A DNA stretch of 27,823 bases from a virus. The DNA lies in UHGV virus genome UHGV-0038965. The stretch is one strand, 5' to 3'. How positions within the stretch are numbered: the stretch's first letter is position 1; each line of letters opens with the position of its first letter. This document shows, piece after piece, positions 4,066 through 21,232 of the stretch. The notes below the pieces were generated by a model that ran no database searches, had not been told where the DNA came from, and was given only the letters and a program-made list of their open reading frames with translations. A program made the position numbers and the translations under genes.

Positions 4066-4283
4066 TTCGAACCTCTCTGTTTACTGATAAGCTCCAGATC
4101 CTCCTGGCAACTTGCACAAGTCCGACAACCCTGAACGACCAGGCGTCTTCGTTCATCTATCGGATCGCCACACTCACAACAATGAGTGGCAGATACAGTC
4201 TGGTAGTTCAGACGACGCATTTTTATTGCTGTGTTGCGCTGTAATTCTTCAATTTCTGATGCTGAATCAATGATGTCTGCCAT
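4062..4283 (-). CDS. TraR/DksA-family C4 zinc-finger protein (73 aa)
   Basis: Four cysteines in CCECGDPIDERRR...GCRTCASCQE, the C4 spacing and length typical of phage and plasmid TraR-like proteins. Overlaps its neighbours by 4 bp. Confidence 0.7.
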   Translation of the reverse strand: MADIIDSASEIEELQRNTAIKMRRLNYQTVSATHCCECGDPIDERRRLVVQGCRTCASCQEDLELISKQRGSK

Positions 4284-4381
4284 CTTCCATTAATCCCTGA
4301 ATTGTTGGTTAATACGCTTGAGGGTGAATGCGAATAATAAAAAAGGAGCCTGTAGCTCCCTGATGATTTTGCTTTTCATGT

Positions 4382-8069: not shown

Positions 8070-8333
8070 TTAGTTTGTTTTAGCTTTGTCATGCTGGTCG
8101 CGAATGAAGTCAGCCAATTTAAGCATCAATTCTTCGGGCATTCTAATGGTTGCAATGTTGTACTTTATGTTCTCAACATCGTCACTTTCATCAACAGGCC
8201 ATTCAGTTACATTATGAAAAAAAGAAATTGAACCTAGGCGCTGAGAGCCGTCACCAAACGAAGAGTAGCCAAACGCGTCGGCGTATGCATCGACACAGTT
8301 ATTTGATTTTTTAACAAGTGTTTTATTACTCAT
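8070..8333 (-). CDS. Hypothetical 87-aa protein with a C-terminal ribbon-helix-helix-like segment
   Basis: The C-terminal TIRMPEELMLKLADFIRDQ resembles the strand-helix start of RHH (CopG/Arc-type) DNA-binding domains. AT-rich. Lies between cI and the membrane-protein gene on the same strand. Confidence 0.5.
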   Translation of the reverse strand: MSNKTLVKKSNNCVDAYADAFGYSSFGDGSQRLGSISFFHNVTEWPVDESDDVENIKYNIATIRMPEELMLKLADFIRDQHDKAKTN

Positions 8334-8415
8334 TTTTTGCCTTTCCCGTAATGTTATTTTTTATAAGGTATTTTCTTCAGCGTATTACCCAAAAGCCTCA
8401 TCAACACGCGGCTGA

Positions 8416-12250: not shown

Positions 12251-12477
12251 GCAACATCGACAAACCAATGACAAACCGTGAACTGGTGGATGCCGCCATT
12301 GAATTGGCCGGAGAGTTTTATGCGATGCAGGGCTATTCGCATCGTCCTGGCTTCAAGTATTGGCAATCTCCGCACCCGCATGAGCGCCTGTGCTTTGAAA
12401 TGGCTTGCGTGGCATTCGAAACCATTCGCGGCTCAGATGTAATGGACGCCGTATCTGAGTTGGAGGATGAAGAATGA
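12247..12477 (+). CDS. Hypothetical nin-region protein (76 aa)
   Basis: ORF translationally coupled to its neighbours by 4-bp overlaps. Confidence 0.55.
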   Translation: MSNIDKPMTNRELVDAAIELAGEFYAMQGYSHRPGFKYWQSPHPHERLCFEMACVAFETIRGSDVMDAVSELEDEE

Positions 12478-12887
12478 GCAACATCGACAAACGCGCATTA
12501 CGTGAAATCGCTGAGGCAGCAGTTGGTGCGCATGAGCGCCTTAGTGTTATGCCGCCTGATGACATTTTCGATATCTCACTGGCAGAAGGAACTCAGCTTG
12601 ATGCAGATATCACTGCCTTGAACGCGCTGAACTCCGCAGCCAACCCAGCCACAGTGCTGGCGCTGCTGGATGAGCTGGAAGCCAAAGACCAGAGGATTGC
12701 TGTGCTGACCGAATCGCTCAAGCAGACGGTTTCAGGATACAAATCCTGCCTGCGTACCGGACATGAGCGCATTCTTGACCTTGGCGGTGACTGTGACGCG
12801 CCAGAAGTGATGATTGCAGGCAATCCTGACATTCAGCAGGCGCAGAAGCTGATCGCCGCCGCATCCGGTAAAGGAGAGGCATCATGA
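12474..12887 (+). CDS. Ea22-like protein (137 aa)
   Basis: The MSNIDKRALREIAEAA N-terminus and the ANPATVLALLDELEA motif are shared with the Ea22-like protein encoded at 3658-4065. Confidence 0.65.
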   Translation: MSNIDKRALREIAEAAVGAHERLSVMPPDDIFDISLAEGTQLDADITALNALNSAANPATVLALLDELEAKDQRIAVLTESLKQTVSGYKSCLRTGHERILDLGGDCDAPEVMIAGNPDIQQAQKLIAAASGKGEAS

Positions 12888-13690
12888 GCACTATTACCAA
12901 ACAATGGCTGCAGCAGAAAATTGCCGACATGGAAGCAGCCAGAGATGAAATCCCGTTCGGTCTGGACGAAGGCGACAGCAACACGCTGGCGGCACTGCGT
13001 ATCGCGCTGGCATCGCTCGAAGCGGAGCCTGCCATTCACCGGTGGCGTCGTGTGACCTCTGAGCCATACGGCCCCTATCCTTGGCATTATGGTGATTTTA
13101 TCGGCTTCTCAAAGCCCGTTGATGGGATTGAGGATGAGTATTTTTACTCCGCCCCGCCAGAGCCAGCCAATGCCGAAACCGTAGCCTGGCTGTGGTCACA
13201 CAGGAAACACCCGAGCGAAGTCACGCTTGTTCGCCCTGAAGATGATGAGAGAGCGGAGGGTGCTCACTGGTCTGGCTGGAGTTGTCAGGCGCTTTATGCA
13301 GCACCGCCAGTTCCGGTATCTGTGCCCACATTCGAGAAATGGTGTGAGTTGACTGAGCAGAAACCTGTCGGATGGGTGCGTGATGCTATGAAAGAAGCGT
13401 ATGACGGATGCCGCGACGCCATGCTTCAGGGTGCCGAAAAAGCCGAGTCGCCCACCACCATGCAGACCGCGCCAGCCCTAGATTCTTCGCCAAAAATTTC
13501 CGAGTCGCCCGTCAGCAACTCTCCGGTGATTCCGGATGGTTGGGTGCTGGTTCCTAAGGAGCCAACTCCAGAAATGCGTGAGGCGTACCATCAGGCGCAG
13601 GAAGAGTGTGAAGATGGCGGTAGATTATGGAGCCCAGACCACCAATGGAAGGCCATGATCGCAGCAGCACCGCAGCAGGAGGCGAAGTGA
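12884..13690 (+). CDS. Hypothetical modular protein (268 aa), paralogous at its N-terminus to the product of 2093-2890
   Basis: MSTITKQWL...LAALRIALASLEAE and NSPVIPDGW are shared with the early-left 265-aa protein; the C-terminal region is unrelated. Confidence 0.6.
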   Translation: MSTITKQWLQQKIADMEAARDEIPFGLDEGDSNTLAALRIALASLEAEPAIHRWRRVTSEPYGPYPWHYGDFIGFSKPVDGIEDEYFYSAPPEPANAETVAWLWSHRKHPSEVTLVRPEDDERAEGAHWSGWSCQALYAAPPVPVSVPTFEKWCELTEQKPVGWVRDAMKEAYDGCRDAMLQGAEKAESPTTMQTAPALDSSPKISESPVSNSPVIPDGWVLVPKEPTPEMREAYHQAQEECEDGGRLWSPDHQWKAMIAAAPQQEAK

Positions 13691-13740
13691 TTATGTCGTG
13701 ACAGCATAATTGCGATGTCAACGATAAGCAGAGGTTTGAA

Positions 13741-13936
13741 AATGAAATCACAATCACCAGTGCAGCATGAAGTTAACATCGACGGCAAAGAGTATGTTGT
13801 CACAGTAGTCCAAACCGGCAAGTCAACGTGGAGGGCATGGGGAGATTCCTGGGGGCGCCATATAGTCGAAACAGGTTCTAGCGAACATAGCGCGCTTTCT
13901 CATTGGAAAGCAAAAGCTTTAGTTATGAATGGGTAG
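13741..13936 (+). CDS. Hypothetical small protein (about 65 aa; the ORF is open from 13715)
   Basis: SD GAGGT precedes the ATG at 13741. Confidence 0.45.
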
Positions 13937-13959
13937 CGCGGAAACTTTGAAGGTATAAT

Positions 13960-13985
13960 CCCCTCAAATAATCGAGGGGGTTTTT
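13960..13985 (+). terminator. Hairpin plus T-run immediately upstream of the moron ATG
   Basis: cccctc-aaataatc-gaggggg-ttttt, directly followed by the ATG at 13986. The 3' arm may double as the SD. Confidence 0.5.
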
Positions 13986-14495
13986 ATGTCTGGTTGGGAT
14001 AACGGTATAGATGCAGTTTCTGCGATTGCAGCTATCGCATCTGCGGTAGCAACTTATTTAGCATGGCGATCCTCAGAAGCTAGCAGGGCCACATCCGAAA
14101 AAGCTTTGCAGTTGCAAGGAAAGCAGTATTTGTACGAGACATTAAAAGCTTGCGCTGAGAGAGCGAATTCATACTCAAAAGGAAAGAAAGGGGCTGACTG
14201 GAGCTTTCATGACGCAGCCAATATTGTTCGATGTTTGAACATGGCAATGGGGAGCATAATAAATTACTCAGATACCAACAATCAGGATGCAATGAAAGGT
14301 CTGAAGCAATTCTTTATTAGCCAATTAAACATGGAGCTTTTTGAAGAGCTCAACTATGAGGTTGGGCCTGATGCCTTCTTTCACGGAGAGGAGCTAACCA
14401 GCATGACGAGCGATATTTACTCGCAGTGGTTAAACATTATTTCATTCTTTAACCTCATGATTGTCACAGATGATGACCTCGCCGATGAAACATAG
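13986..14495 (+). CDS. Hypothetical membrane-anchored protein (169 aa), moron
   Basis: N-terminal hydrophobic helix (IDAVSAIAAIASAVATYLAW) followed by a soluble domain. Markedly AT-rich relative to flanking nin genes. Bracketed by hairpins, with TATAAT at 13953-13958. Confidence 0.65.
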   Translation: MSGWDNGIDAVSAIAAIASAVATYLAWRSSEASRATSEKALQLQGKQYLYETLKACAERANSYSKGKKGADWSFHDAANIVRCLNMAMGSIINYSDTNNQDAMKGLKQFFISQLNMELFEELNYEVGPDAFFHGEELTSMTSDIYSQWLNIISFFNLMIVTDDDLADET

Positions 14496-14682
14496 CTTGA
14501 TTGATTTTCCATAATCAACCCGCCATAATCATGTCATCGGAGCCTGAACAACTCCGGTGACTTCTGCGCTAAACGGGGACGTTTATGCGCACATACAATC
14601 CAAACTCACTTCTCCCGTCACAGATGCAGAAATGCACCTGCGATTTTTTGTATTCTGCGTTTTACCTCTACGGAGGTGAAGC

Positions 14683-15138
14683 GTGAACCTCCCACAAGAC
14701 GGCATCAAACTACATCGCGGCAACTTCACCGCTATCGGCCAGCAGATCCAGCCTTATCTGGAGGACGGAAAATGCTTTCGCATGGTGCTTAAACCGTGGC
14801 GTGAGAAACGCAGTCTTTCCCAGAATGCACTCAGCCACATGTGGTACAGCGAAATCAGTGAATACCTCATCAGCAGGGGTAAAACGTTCGCCACTCCAGC
14901 TTGGGTAAAAGATGCTCTCAAACACACATATCTCGGTTATGAAACCAAAGACCTGGTTGATGTCGTAACCGGTGATATCACCACTATCCAGTCGTTACGC
15001 CATACCTCCGACCTTGATACCGGAGAGATGTATGTCTTCCTGTGTAAGGTTGAAGCCTGGGCGATGAATATTGGCTGCCACCTGACTATTCCGCAGAGCT
15101 GCGAGTTCCAGCTGCTGCGTGATAAGCAGGAGGCGTAA
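14683..15138 (+). CDS. ninB: NinB/YbcN-family protein (DNA-binding recombination protein), 151 aa, GTG start
   Basis: Resembles DLP12 YbcN/NinB as I recall it; GGAGG SD upstream; position at the head of the nin cluster. Confidence 0.75.
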
Positions 15139-15308
15139 TGGCTACACCGCTTATTCGTGTCATGAACGGACACATCTACAAAGTACCAAATCGTCGTAAG
15201 CGTAAGCCTGAGCTGAAACCATCCGAAATACCAACACTGCTCGGATATACCGCCAGCCTGGTTGATAAAAAATGGTTGCGACTGGCAGCTAGGAGGAATC
15301 ATGGCTGA
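15138..15308 (+). CDS. ninE: NinE-like small protein (56 aa)
   Basis: My own translation gives [56 protein letters not shown]. It is below the track cutoff and resembles DLP12 NinE from memory. Confidence 0.6.
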   Translation: MATPLIRVMNGHIYKVPNRRKRKPELKPSEIPTLLGYTASLVDKKWLRLAARRNHG

Positions 15309-15591
15309 TTTGAGAAAAGCAGCGCGTGGTCGGGAATGCCAGGTAAGAATCCCTGGCGTATGTAATGGCAATCCTGAAACGTCTGTACTGGCACATATCC
15401 GGCTGGCTGGATTGTGCGGTACCGGTATCAAACCGCCAGACCTGATTGCCACCATTGCATGTTCTGCCTGTCACGACGAGATCGACCGTCGCACGCATTT
15501 TGTTGACGCTGGATATGCAAAAGAATGCGCGCTGGAAGGTATGGCGAGAACGCAGGTTATCTGGCTGAAAGAGGGGGTAATTAAGGCGTGA
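15302..15591 (+). CDS. ybcO: YbcO-like protein (DUF1364, putative nuclease with Cys/His cluster), about 96 aa
   Basis: [34 protein letters not shown]...CSACHDEID matches DLP12 YbcO from memory. The ORF is open from 15262, but SD AGGAGG precedes the ATG at 15302. Confidence 0.7.
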
Positions 15592-15950
15592 ATACCTACA
15601 ATATCACATTACCCTGGCCGCCGAGCAATAATCGCTATTACCGCCATAATCGCGGGCGCACGCACATCAGCGCAGAGGGGCAGGCATACCGCGAAAACGT
15701 CGCCCGAATCATTAAAAACGCAATGCTGGATATCGGCCTGGCTATGCCTGTGAAAATCCGCATTGAGTGTCACATGCCGGATCGCCGTCGCCGTGACCTG
15801 GATAATCTACAAAAGGCCGCTTTTGACGCACTCACCAAAGCAGGTTTCTGGCTGGATGATGCTCAGGTCGTTGATTACCGCGTTGTGAAGATGCCGGTTG
15901 TCAAAGGTGGAAAGCTGGAACTGACCATCACTGAACAGGGAGATGAATGA
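15588..15950 (+). CDS. rusA: RusA Holliday-junction resolvase, 120 aa
   Basis: [42 protein letters not shown]... matches DLP12 RusA. Confidence 0.92.
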
Positions 15951-16087
15951 TGTTTGAGTTTTATATGGCAGAACTTCTTCGCCACCGCTGGATGCGCCTG
16001 CGCTTATATCGTTTCCCCGGTTCTGTTTTGACCGATTACCGAATACTGAAGAATTACGCCAAAACACTGACAGGAGCAGGAGTATGA
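15947..16087 (+). CDS. ylcG: YlcG-like small protein (46 aa)
   Basis: My own translation gives [46 protein letters not shown], which resembles DLP12 YlcG. Overlaps rusA by 4 bp. Confidence 0.6.
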
Positions 16088-16172
16088 AGTCAGAGATAAC
16101 AATCAACTAATACTGTTTTGTTGATTTTTGCTTGTAATTGGCGTTCTGGTCTGAGTTTTGTGGAGTAAGTTG

Positions 16173-16620
16173 ATGCGTGATATTCAGATGGTTCTTGAGC
16201 GTTGGGGAGCGTGGGCGGCTAATAATCATGAAGATGTGACCTGGTCGTCCATTGCCGCCGGTTTTAAGGGATTAATTCCTTCAAAAGTAAAATCTCGCCC
16301 ACAATGTTGTGACGATGACGCGATGATCATTTGCGGGTGCATGGNNNNNNNNNNAATCTCGCCCACAATGTTGTGACGATGACGCGATGATCATTTGCGG
16401 GTGCATGGCCCGTCTGAAAAAGAACAACAGCGATTTGCACGATTTATTAGTAGATTATTATGTAGTCGGTATGACATTCATGTCACTGGCAGGTAAGCAT
16501 TGCTGCTCTGATGGTTATATCGGGAAAAGGTTACAAAAGGCTGAGGGCATAATTGAAGGGATGTTAATGGCATTAGATATCCGGTTAGAGATGGATATCG
16601 TTGTTAATAACTCTAATTAA
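16173..16620 (+). CDS. Q: Late antiterminator Q (phage 82 / DLP12 QuuD type); the reading frame is interrupted by an assembly gap
   Basis: [31 protein letters not shown]...[20 protein letters not shown]...[14 protein letters not shown]. The two track ORFs (16158-16376 and 16387-16620) are halves of one gene split by a 10-N gap with duplicated flanks. Confidence 0.85.
16345..16354. other. Scaffold gap (10 N) flanked by an identical 54-bp direct duplication (16291-16344 and 16355-16408)
   Basis: The N run is visible in the sequence, and the same 54 bp occurs on both sides of it. Removing one copy plus the Ns restores an intact Q frame. Confidence 0.9.
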
Positions 16621-16808: not shown

Positions 16809-17891
16809 TTAGAACTGGTAAACCATACCTACAGCAACGATATCATCGGTAGCAACGCCAGATGCTTTCGTGAAATCGCTCTTATCAATCAGGTTGATTT
16901 TGTAGTCAACAAAAGTGGACATATTTTTGTTGAAGTAATAGGTTGCACCTACATCAACATATTCAACCAGGTCCTGATCACCCCAAACACCCAAGTCTTT
17001 TCCTTTAGAATGCAGGTAAGCAACGGATGGACGCAGGCCGAAGTCGAACTGATATTGTGCAACAGCTTCGAAGTTTTGTGCTTTGTTGGCAATATGGTTA
17101 TTACCAAAAACAGTCATGTTCTGGGTTTCAGAATAGGTGGTGGCCAGATAGATGTTGTTCGCATCATATTTCAGACCAGCTGCCCATACTTCAGCATTTT
17201 GACCAGAAGCATTCAGACCGTTGTTACCGTAGATAACCTGATTATTAGTGCGATCAGATTTAGCATAGGTTGCACCCACGCCGAATCCTTCATACTCATA
17301 AGTAGTTGAGAAACCGAAACCATCGCCATTAGCTTCAGTTACTTCATTTCGGTCATTTTTGCCCTGATACTGAGCTGCAAAGTTCAGGCCATCAACCAGA
17401 CCAAAGAAGTCGTTGTTACGATAAGTTGCAACACCTGTGGTGCGACCAGTCATGAATACATCTGTTTGGGTCCAGGTATCGCCACCGAATTCTGGCAGAA
17501 CGTCAGTCCACGCACCGATGTCGTATGCTACACCGTAGTTACGGCCGTAATCGATTGAGCCGTAGTCACCGAATTTCAGGCCTGCAAATGCAAGACGGGT
17601 TTTGTCTTTGGAGGAACCTTGAGATTCAGCGCGGTTGCCTTTGAATTCATATTCCCACTGACCGAAACCAGTCAGTTGATCGTTGATTTGGGTTTCACCT
17701 TTGAAGCCAAGACGGGCATAAGTAGTATCACCATCATCTGCATCATTAGAGGAGAAGTAGTGCTTAGCATTAACTTTCCCGTACAGATCCAGCTTGTTAC
17801 TGTCTTTATTATAAATTTCAGCTGCCTGAGCAGACATCGCCATCAGTACTGATGCAGCTACAGCAGAAATTGCCACTGTTAATTTTTTCAT
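16809..17891 (-). CDS. nmpC: Outer-membrane general porin of the OmpC/NmpC/Lc family (360 aa), lysogenic-conversion moron
   Basis: Signal peptide [23 protein letters not shown], a C-terminal ...VGMVYQF beta-barrel terminal motif, and overall similarity to enterobacterial porins. Lies opposite in orientation between Q and the lysis genes, as in DLP12 and PA-2. Confidence 0.92.
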
Positions 17892-19637: not shown

Positions 19638-19756
19638 AATCTTAACTACAATATGATTCATTTTGATGATTGTTTCATAAGGAACAGTGAAGTAAGATCT
19701 AAGAGGAGTTAAATTTTATACAGTATAATCATAATATTGCAGCAAGGTGGTTATAA

Positions 19757-21232
19757 TTGAAAGAATATTTAGATATGAATACATCTCATGTAAGAGTTGT
19801 TACTCATATGTGTGGGTTCCTGGTTTGGCTCTATAGTCTTTCAATGTTGCCACCAATGGTTGTAGCATTGTTTTATAAAGAAAAAAGCCTGTTCGTTTTC
19901 TTTATAACTTTCGTTATATTTTTTTGCATTGGTGGCGGAGCGTGGTATACAACTAAGAAATCTGGCATTCAATTACGTACCCGTGATGGGTTTATTATAA
20001 TTGTAATGTTTTGGATTTTGTTTTCTGTTATTAGTGCATTCCCTTTATGGATTGACTCAGAACTTAATTTAACGTTCATTGATGCTCTGTTTGAAGGGGT
20101 TTCTGGAATAACAACAACAGGAGCAACTGTAATTGATGATGTTAGTTCATTACCTCGGGCATATTTGTACTATCGGTCACAGTTAAATTTTATAGGTGGT
20201 TTAGGAGTTATTGTTCTGGCGGTTGCTGTATTGCCATTATTGGGTATTGGTGGTGCAAAGCTTTATCAGTCAGAAATGCCGGGGCCATTTAAGGATGACA
20301 AACTCACTCCCCGCCTGGCCGATACGTCACGGACACTGTGGATAACTTATTCTTTATTAGGTATTGCTTGTATTGTCTGTTATAGACTTGCAGGAATGCC
20401 TTTGTTTGATGCTATTTGTCACGGGATTTCCACAGTTTCGCTTGGTGGTTTCTCAACTCATAGCGAGAGTATCGGATATTTTAATAACTATTTGGTTGAG
20501 CTGGTGGCTGGTTCTTTTTCCCTGCTATCGGCTTTCAACTTCACTCTTTGGTATATTGTTATTAGCAGGAAAACGATAAAACCTTTAATCAGAGATATTG
20601 AACTTCGTTTCTTTCTGTTAATAGCCTTAGGGGTGATCATTGTTACCTCTTTCCAGGTCTGGCATATAGGTATGTATGACTTGCATGGAAGTTTTATTCA
20701 TTCGTTTTTTCTTGCCAGCTCCATGCTCACTGATAATGGTTTAGCTACGCAGGATTATGCAAGTTGGCCCACGCACACGATAGTGTTTTTGCTGTTGTCA
20801 AGTTTCTTTGGGGGATGTATAGGTTCAACTTGTGGTGGAATTAAGTCACTTCGATTTCTTATACTTTTCAAACAAAGCAAACACGAGATAAATCAGCTTT
20901 CTCATCCCAGAGCGTTGTTGAGTGTAAATGTAGGAGGGAAGATAGTTACAGATCGTGTAATGAGGTCTGTATGGAGTTTCTTTTTTCTTTATACTCTCTT
21001 CACGGTGTTTTTTATACTGGTGTTAAATGGTATGGGATATGATTTTCTTACATCATTTGCAACAGTGGCTGCATGTATTAATAATATGGGATTAGGTTTT
21101 GGGGCTACTGCATCGTCATTCGGAGTGCTTAATGACATTGCAAAATGTTTAATGTGCATAGCTATGATTCTTGGTCGCCTTGAAATTTATCCTGTTATTA
21201 TATTGTTTTCAGGTTTTTTTTGGCGCTCCTAA
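19757..21232 (+). CDS. trkG: TrkH/TrkG-family potassium uptake membrane protein (491 aa), moron
   Basis: Polytopic membrane protein with repeated GxG selectivity-filter-like segments (GITTTGATV, GIGGAK, GGFSTH, GSTCGGIK). Strongly AT-rich. Lies after Rz, where the Rac prophage has trkG. Confidence 0.85.
   Translation: MKEYLDMNTSHVRVVTHMCGFLVWLYSLSMLPPMVVALFYKEKSLFVFFITFVIFFCIGGGAWYTTKKSGIQLRTRDGFIIIVMFWILFSVISAFPLWIDSELNLTFIDALFEGVSGITTTGATVIDDVSSLPRAYLYYRSQLNFIGGLGVIVLAVAVLPLLGIGGAKLYQSEMPGPFKDDKLTPRLADTSRTLWITYSLLGIACIVCYRLAGMPLFDAICHGISTVSLGGFSTHSESIGYFNNYLVELVAGSFSLLSAFNFTLWYIVISRKTIKPLIRDIELRFFLLIALGVIIVTSFQVWHIGMYDLHGSFIHSFFLASSMLTDNGLATQDYASWPTHTIVFLLLSSFFGGCIGSTCGGIKSLRFLILFKQSKHEINQLSHPRALLSVNVGGKIVTDRVMRSVWSFFFLYTLFTVFFILVLNGMGYDFLTSFATVAACINNMGLGFGATASSFGVLNDIAKCLMCIAMILGRLEIYPVIILFSGFFWRS

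Follow-up and report, generated by a model that had tools for sequence, protein, structure and literature searches.

Morons are extra genes that carry their own signals and lie between genes that are adjacent in related phages; the membrane superinfection-exclusion protein gp15 of HK97 is a lambdoid example. An open reading frame (ORF) encoding 169 amino acids (aa) in the virus genome UHGV-0038965, here called ORF169, resembles such genes in being small, dispensable and compositionally deviant, in lying between conserved genes, and in having a predicted inner-membrane product. It differs from them in having no demonstrable promoter or terminator of its own and in a soluble domain that is predicted to be cytoplasmic. 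A preliminary description of the complete 27,823-nucleotide (nt) stretch (hereafter the window) had presented ORF169 as a self-contained, adenine- and thymine-rich (AT-rich) moron within the nin region. Its accessory, exchangeable and AT-rich character stands, but self-containment is not supported, as the signals around the gene appear to belong to the borders of a slot. This hypervariable slot would lie where the nin region begins and accept many alternative AT-rich cassettes as cargo, ORF169 among them. The left border would be a terminator-like junction element, and the right border the structured leader of the ylcH-ybcN-ninE-ybcO-rusA-Q genes.

The closest described arrangements are those of phage lambda and of prophage DLP12 and phage 82. 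The lambda gene order is pR-cro-O-P-ren-tR2 (PMC3640518). The ren-ninB spacer of lambda carries a hairpin plus T-run of unrelated sequence at the place equivalent to the junction element, and the two loci share the same strand and operon logic, with a GC-rich hairpin and T-run after the replication/ren side and before the first nin gene. They differ in that the hairpin of the present locus is flanked 5′ by a TATA[A/C]T that does not vary and has a 3′ arm that doubles as ribosome-binding site, and in that ninB directly follows tR2 in lambda whereas a variable cargo cassette comes first here. From 14501 onward the arrangement is that of DLP12 and phage 82, positions 14501–16600 being the same block at 92–98% DNA identity. 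In Escherichia coli K-12, the DLP12 slot between renD and the ylcH leader holds emrE, ylcJ, ybcK, ybcL and ybcM, cargo that is unrelated to ORF169, whereas the slot described here holds a single 169-aa gene. The DLP12 junction hairpin is a diverged variant, TACAAT with ATTCTCTCC/GGAAAGAAT, placed directly before the emrE ATG, and the ylcH leader further downstream is conserved (4248–4316 and 8252–8369 in the MG1655 locus, L279).

A proposed cargo slot where the nin region begins

Loci were fetched by ORF homology or by the exact junction pattern, and 81 of them carried both borders; the DNA between the borders fell into 31 cargo clusters of 432–2734 nt, numbers that are illustrative only because the sample is biased and is no census. 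Mean guanine-plus-cytosine (GC) content in these loci was 0.437 for the cargo, 0.511 upstream and 0.552 downstream. The slot was never empty in the sample, ORF169 replacing other cargo rather than simply being added. It has a fixed position and conserved bounds, accepts many alternative and unrelated AT-rich genes, and is situated within an operon of early lytic genes, not at one end of the prophage. The simplest route of cassette exchange would be recombination between the shared border sequences. No direct or inverted repeats were found flanking ORF169, and a transposon-like insertion was rejected on that ground. The preliminary description had proposed comparing related prophages at this junction, and the comparison bears out an exchangeable segment: cargo differs between them, and in 5426 complete E. 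coli genomes the present ORF169 allele occurs in 26 and the leader that forms the right-hand flank in 3026. The allele of the type found in phage PhiR26_1 was counted in 181 of these genomes, and the family as a whole in approximately 200.

The commonest occupant of the slot is a homologue of the DNA polymerase III theta subunit (Hot-like; Pfam E = 2.6e-34). Other occupants include a DUF1643 protein, a match to the PADLOC candidate PDC-S67 (E = 1e-41), several proteins of 160–211 aa with an R-x4-H motif recognised by eye, one of which has a weak Csm6/HEPN match (E = 0.003), and a distant member of ORF169’s own family (L154_2, matching phrog_1779 at E = 6.8e-16). The PDC-S67 and R-x4-H occupants come from loci L104, L105, L148, L155 and L165. 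The PDC-S67 protein (194 aa) occupies the same sub-slot directly upstream of the ybcN leader and has a hydrophobic start by eye, but shows no detectable homology with ORF169. Three settings outside the slot also yielded members of the ORF169 family: an integrase/AlpA island of Serratia, a pL operon, where the gene follows N, and a site beside pyocin-S cargo. A conserved partner gene for family members was never seen across the loci compared.

The borders of the slot and their signals

The features of the left border and the gene that follows it are:

13954–13959, plus strand: TATAAT hexamer, 5′ flank of the junction element and partly its 5′ hairpin arm
13957–13985, plus strand: junction hairpin and T-run (stem 13957–13965/13974–13982, loop 13966–13973)
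13986–14495, plus strand: ORF169, 169 aa (RefSeq WP_000017329.1, “hypothetical protein”), the cargo gene in the slot

The ORF, the TATAAT and the hairpin with a T-run ending at the ATG, all noted in the preliminary description, are present at 13954–13985 and 13986–14495. The hairpin has a 9-bp stem and an 8-nt loop (−14.8 kcal/mol, z = −3.8 against shuffled sequences), and its T5 (13981–13985) abuts the ORF169 ATG. The only Shine-Dalgarno-like sequence available to ORF169 is GAGGGGG (13974–13980), which lies in the 3′ hairpin arm. Approximately 95 loci encoding family members were collected. A common layout of TATA[A/C]T, GC-rich hairpin, usually a T-run, and start codon was seen in 16 distinct alleles, down to approximately 50% protein identity, while the upstream DNA is unrelated. 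The hairpin structure is kept while the loops vary; the U-run is missing in one allele (L096) and interrupted in two. Because loop lengths vary, MAFFT did not keep the junction hairpin or stem-loop 1 of the leader (below) in register, and the conservation of pairing was read from per-sequence folds, not from formal counts of pairs.

The exact pattern TATAATCCCCTC-N8-GAGGGG (TATAAT plus CCCCTC-N8-GAGGGG) was found in 87 IMG/VR contigs, where the junction element directly precedes at least five unrelated first genes: a 60-aa protein, the theta homologue (80–85 aa), the DUF1643 protein, an 82-aa protein and ORF169. The element is probably not ORF169’s own signal, since these unrelated genes also have it. 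A relaxed pattern, ATCCCCTC-N8-GAGGGG, was too generic, including unrelated terminators, and has no bearing on the constraint upon the leading TAT. By analogy with lambda, the junction element is best read as the tR2-position terminator of this lineage, and its GAGGGG 3′ arm appears to provide the Shine-Dalgarno sequence of whichever gene comes next. It may also double as a −10 box.

The last point bears on the account in which ORF169 is a moron in the strict sense, a lysogen-expressed defence or fitness factor with its own sigma-70 promoter at the TATAAT of 13954 and its own terminator. The TATA[A/C]T is invariant in the 16 alleles despite their unrelated flanks, while the hairpin loops are free to vary. 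A transcript starting approximately 7 nt downstream would begin within the loop, and would thereby avoid the hairpin and have an open ribosome-binding site. The AT-rich composition of the cargo and the movement of the gene between unrelated elements fit this account as well. However, the promoter scan found no −35 or TGn partner for the hexamer, and TATAAT by itself is unremarkable, with six copies on each strand of the window. Part of the hexamer is also stem, in RNA or DNA, because its AAT is paired with ATT and compensatory variants exist: the TATACT alleles have AGT in the 3′ arm, and a G-inserted variant, TAATG, is matched by CATTA. The occurrence of the element before unrelated genes tells against a promoter private to ORF169, as does the listing of the K-12 renD/emrE junction within one operon and with no sigma-70 SELEX (systematic evolution of ligands by exponential enrichment) peak (PMC3946193). 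The terminator side of this account fares worse still at the right border, whose features are:

14501–14529, plus strand: promoter-like site, TTGATT-17-CATAAT, start of the conserved leader and right border of the slot
14533–14561, plus strand: leader stem-loop 1, 10-bp stem with a conserved 9-nt loop, CCUGAACAA
14566–14590, plus strand: leader stem-loop 2; its loop contains GGGGA, the Shine-Dalgarno sequence of ylcH, and its 3′ arm the start codon (ATG) of that gene
14585–14686, plus strand: ylcH-like ORF of 33 codons, orf33 of phage 82; its TGA overlaps the ybcN start (GTGA)
14625–14642, plus strand: second hairpin of the preliminary description, TGCAG-N8-CTGCG plus T-run, inside the ylcH frame
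14683–15138, plus strand: ybcN, orf151 of phage 82, first large gene of the ybcN-ninE-ybcO-rusA-ylcG-quuD block

The window shares its DNA sequence with phage 82 and prophages of the DLP12 type from 14500/14501 on, 5–6 nt past the ORF169 stop; identity to the phage 82 record X92588 is 93% from the putative −35 of that record onward. That record annotates the promoter-like site as a putative −35/−10. The TTGATT-17-CATAAT site was found in three loci and is conserved upstream of K-12 ylcH, and all E. coli family alleles have TTGATT...AATCAA..CATAAT within a few bases after the gene. The signature of the right border comprises TTGATT..CATAAT and the loop CCTGAACAA. Stem-loop 1 (−15.7 kcal/mol, z = −3.9), which the depositors of the phage 82 sequence annotated as a “possible regulator-binding site”, keeps its pairing and its loop across at least seven stem sequences. 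Stem-loop 2 (−13.8 kcal/mol, z = −5.6) shows compensatory changes at six of its nine pairs (RNAalifold). Rfam gave no match in 13600–14800 at E ≤ 1. The two stem-loops may serve as a 5′ stabiliser, in translational control of ylcH and ybcN, or as a protein-binding site.

No terminator was found between ORF169 and this leader. The preliminary description had placed after ORF169 a non-coding stretch of approximately 185 bp with another hairpin, but the stretch concerned (14496–14682) is neither non-coding nor part of the insert. It contains the ylcH ORF, which RefSeq annotates as a 33-aa coding sequence in segment-identical genomes and which corresponds to ylcH of K-12, together with the promoter-like site and two stem-loops. 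The second hairpin does exist, but it lies inside ylcH, the minimum-energy fold of its stretch (−9.1 kcal/mol, z = −2.45) pairs differently, and the L007 and L011 alleles have lost it. It is weak and does not serve ORF169 as a terminator. The gene downstream, previously called ninB, is ybcN: against Pfam NinB it scores 21.8, short of the 23.8 cut-off, though it matches the PHROG NinB/Orf family, and RefSeq names its product “DNA base-flipping protein YbcN”. With its supposed spacer identified as the ybcN leader, a self-contained moron is an unlikely explanation of the locus.

A second account, to which we give slightly less credence again, makes ORF169 an ordinary delayed-early lytic gene that is expressed only upon induction or infection, from N-antiterminated pR, and acts in phage development at the membrane, for example in host takeover, replication or lysis timing, and not in defending the lysogen. 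ORF169 has the strand and operon position of the nin genes, directly after the putative terminator at the tR2 position; no terminator was found between it and ybcN; the commonest slot occupant, the theta homologue, is replication-related; and one family member lies in the pL early operon after N. Against this, phages can do without ORF169, which is missing from most lambdoid prophages that share these borders; the family also occurs in the non-lambdoid Serratia integrase island, and the composition of the gene is AT-rich and cargo-like. The favoured reading, in which ORF169 is exchangeable cargo in a bordered slot, shares with this account its main source of transcription: ORF169 would be transcribed mainly by read-through from pR, with N antitermination overriding the junction terminator. 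Weak lysogen transcription from the −10-like hexamer might be added to this, a start in the hairpin loop leaving the ribosome-binding site unpaired.

ORF169, its protein family and a possible role

ORF169 is a genuine gene. The ratio of nonsynonymous to synonymous substitution rates (dN/dS) is 0.10–0.22 between ORF169 and nine alleles of 59–97% aa identity, full-length conservation extends to members of 22% identity, in which S33 and P128 are invariant, and two phages that can be induced, PhiR26_1 and PhiR5_1, carry the gene. A fortuitous ORF or the remnant of a decaying gene, as might be suspected in a defective prophage with IS1 in its terminase gene and from a RefSeq entry that reads only “hypothetical protein”, is effectively refuted by this selection signal, by the full-length conservation with its (E/D)RAN motif, and by the occurrence in inducible phages, and is extremely improbable.

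The base composition of ORF169 had been described as departing sharply from that of its neighbours. The departure is real next to the adjacent genes (GC 0.431; the six genes upstream have 0.50–0.57, and ybcN has 0.509) but not sharp on the scale of the window, which has a mean GC of 0.47 and in which ORF169 is only at the 19th percentile among the window’s own 510-nt windows. The GC drop is local rather than extreme, and the low-GC stretch begins earlier, near 13700, with a small ORF:

13742–13936, plus strand: extra ORF of 64 codons, unannotated, in a frame open from 13715 (GC 0.472)

This ORF has a good ribosome-binding site, GAGG 8 nt before its ATG, and is not called by RefSeq. No match to it was found in PHROGs, Pfam, NCBIfam or, by tblastn, in phage genomes, and a search of E. 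coli genomes recovered it only with the present ORF169 allele. In L011, L030 and L031 the stop of the DUF551-type gene directly abuts the junction element. The 64-codon ORF is an additional insertion that separates the 268-aa gene from the junction element and lies outside the ORF169 cassette. A two-gene system of ORF169 and the 64-codon ORF was rejected, because other ORF169 alleles have unrelated or no upstream neighbours and because the 64-codon ORF has no homologues.

A promoter-like site on the minus strand inside ORF169 (14247–14220), which recurs in L005, was treated as a by-product of protein conservation because it lies in the most conserved coding stretch. A deletion variant of the locus occurs in E. 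coli 2020CK-00188 (L004, 3278–3512), where gam is followed by ORF169 after approximately 210 nt. Similarity to the window starts there at 13999, the immunity/replication region and the junction hairpin are gone, and RefSeq still predicts a 169-aa product with a different N-terminus.

The ORF169 protein matches phrog_1779, a PHROGs family of unknown function, at E = 2.5e-77 (residues 3–167 against profile positions 2–169 of 169). A word-indexed search of 5.8 billion proteins returned 29 clusters, of which all named members are from Enterobacterales (Escherichia, Enterobacter, Klebsiella, Serratia, Hafnia and Scandinavium). When 1.84 billion representatives were searched exhaustively with a profile, only 36 clusters at 50% identity came up. 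The family phrog_1779 is an orphan, seen only in prophages and prophage-like islands of this order. Searches of Pfam, NCBIfam, PADLOC and, with sequence profiles, the PDB gave no match for the protein; a Foldseek comparison of its model with BFVD gave none, and no homologue carries a precomputed Pfam domain. The label “DUF4760 domain-containing” on a UniRef cluster was not reproduced by current Pfam-A: DUF4760 gave no hit to the ORF169 protein at E ≤ 1 and was absent among the 25 most-matched Pfam families listed for 25 family members at E ≤ 10. A match of two distant members to SLATT_1 (E = 0.13–0.16) covers only hydrophobic segments and was dismissed. The literature searched yielded no mention of the accession, the PHROG number, PDC-S67, or ylcH together with ybcN, and one uninformative mention of DUF4760.

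The preliminary description had also proposed one N-terminal membrane helix followed by a soluble domain of no known family, and this agrees with the hydropathy profile, the distribution of charges and the empty family searches. The feature concerned is:

14007–14069, plus strand: predicted membrane anchor, codons 8–28, rich in Ala, Ser and Gly

The hydrophobic segment (residues 8–26, Kyte-Doolittle 19-residue mean 1.74) is preceded by acidic residues and followed by basic ones (Arg/Lys). The 19-residue maximum is 1.5–2.4 in 18 of 19 family members, with one outlier at 0.98. Under the positive-inside rule, the established basis for reading topology from flanking charges, the acidic N-terminal and basic C-terminal flanks predict an N-terminus outside and a cytoplasmic helical domain, and the acidic N-flank argues against a Sec signal peptide. 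An AlphaFold2 model (mean predicted local distance difference test score, pLDDT, 87.5) has a continuous helix over residues 5–64 that includes the anchor, followed by a helical bundle. The protein is thus predicted to be a small bitopic inner-membrane protein with an acidic N-tail, an anchor and stalk helix, a compact helical domain and an acidic tail. Conserved features of the family are the (E/D)RAN motif, which is recurrent by eye, G..W.F...ANI, a P-D motif, W...FF, and the acidic C-terminal tail ..TD(E/D)DL.D (..TDDDLADET in ORF169). No His, Cys or metal-type residues are conserved, which suggests a binding or oligomerising protein rather than an enzyme, and its action at the inner membrane would depend on contacts with other proteins, not on catalysis.

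The reading as a whole, that ORF169 encodes a bitopic membrane protein carried as exchangeable cargo in a bordered slot and with a conflict role at the inner membrane, is modestly favoured. Taken by itself, a role in phage-phage or phage-host conflict, such as superinfection exclusion or abortive infection, is a tentative proposal that is somewhat more likely to fail than to hold. The ORF169 protein may resemble superinfection-exclusion proteins of the HK97 gp15, P22 SieA and T4 Imm types as a small inner-membrane protein encoded by a prophage: it has one hydrophobic N-terminal helix with a charge bias, and the AlphaFold2 model supports this prediction. No sequence or fold similarity to known exclusion proteins was found.

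Several observations weigh against this reading. The case for defence or exclusion draws only on location and architecture, and location is weak evidence for function because the commonest occupant of the slot, the theta homologue, is not a defence gene; no occupant seen is an experimentally validated defence system. No PADLOC-DB 2.0 family matches ORF169 at E ≤ 10, and homology with PDC-S67 was rejected (hhalign probability 0.3%). The hydrophobicity of the anchor is only moderate, at 1.74, and the picture of the slot comes from the biased sample described above. The invariance of TATA[A/C]T also exceeds what base-pairing explains, its first three bases being invariant though unpaired in most alleles, so a real promoter at the hexamer may exist. 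The stronger proposal that phrog_1779 is a new single-gene, membrane-anchored anti-phage determinant and that the slot is the lambdoid counterpart of the P2/P4 defence hotspots is doubtful.

The host prophage and the use of the borders

Over the segments compared, 13700–14900 and 12474–14500, the E. coli strains MIN9 and QDFD216 have chromosomal sequence 100% identical to the window. The host element is a lambdoid prophage, defective, and occupies the attachment site of lambda, in the interval between ybhC and the bio operon. Its terminase gene is truncated by an IS1 element. Around ORF169, the genes run from those of O/P-type replication through several small ORFs and one Ea22-like gene to the 268-aa gene (DUF551-like) and ORF169 itself, followed by the 33-aa ORF, ybcN, ninE, ybcO, rusA, ylcG and quuD, and then by an ompC/nmpC-like porin gene on the opposite strand.

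Further cargo of the same prophage includes this porin gene (16809–17891, minus strand), opposite the Q gene and in a region of GC approximately 0.37–0.44, and a trkG potassium transporter gene at approximately 19700–21200, downstream of the lysis genes. Within the Q-type antiterminator gene quuD, positions 16291–16409 contain a run of 10 N (16346–16355) flanked by a direct duplication of approximately 54 nt, which looks like a scaffold-gap artefact of overlapping contig ends rather than biology; quuD is intact (384 nt) in the matching MIN9 genome.

Taken alone, ORF169 encodes an uncharacterised accessory protein of a prophage, which catalogues already list under the name of hypothetical protein and as a PHROG without assigned function. 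Of more use is the pair of short, conserved and structured borders that appear to delimit a hypervariable AT-rich slot in lambdoid prophages of the DLP12/phage 82 type. More than half of the complete genomes of E. coli carry such prophages, and the K-12 representative holds emrE in its slot. A caution follows for the reading of other prophages, in that promoter- and terminator-like signals beside a cargo gene may be those of the slot and not of the gene. If any occupants of the slot, the ORF169 family among them, prove to be conflict factors, the borders would be a simple handle for mining more of them, and if the hotspot reading were true, they could guide the collection of new genes for defence and counter-defence from E. 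coli prophages in their thousands.

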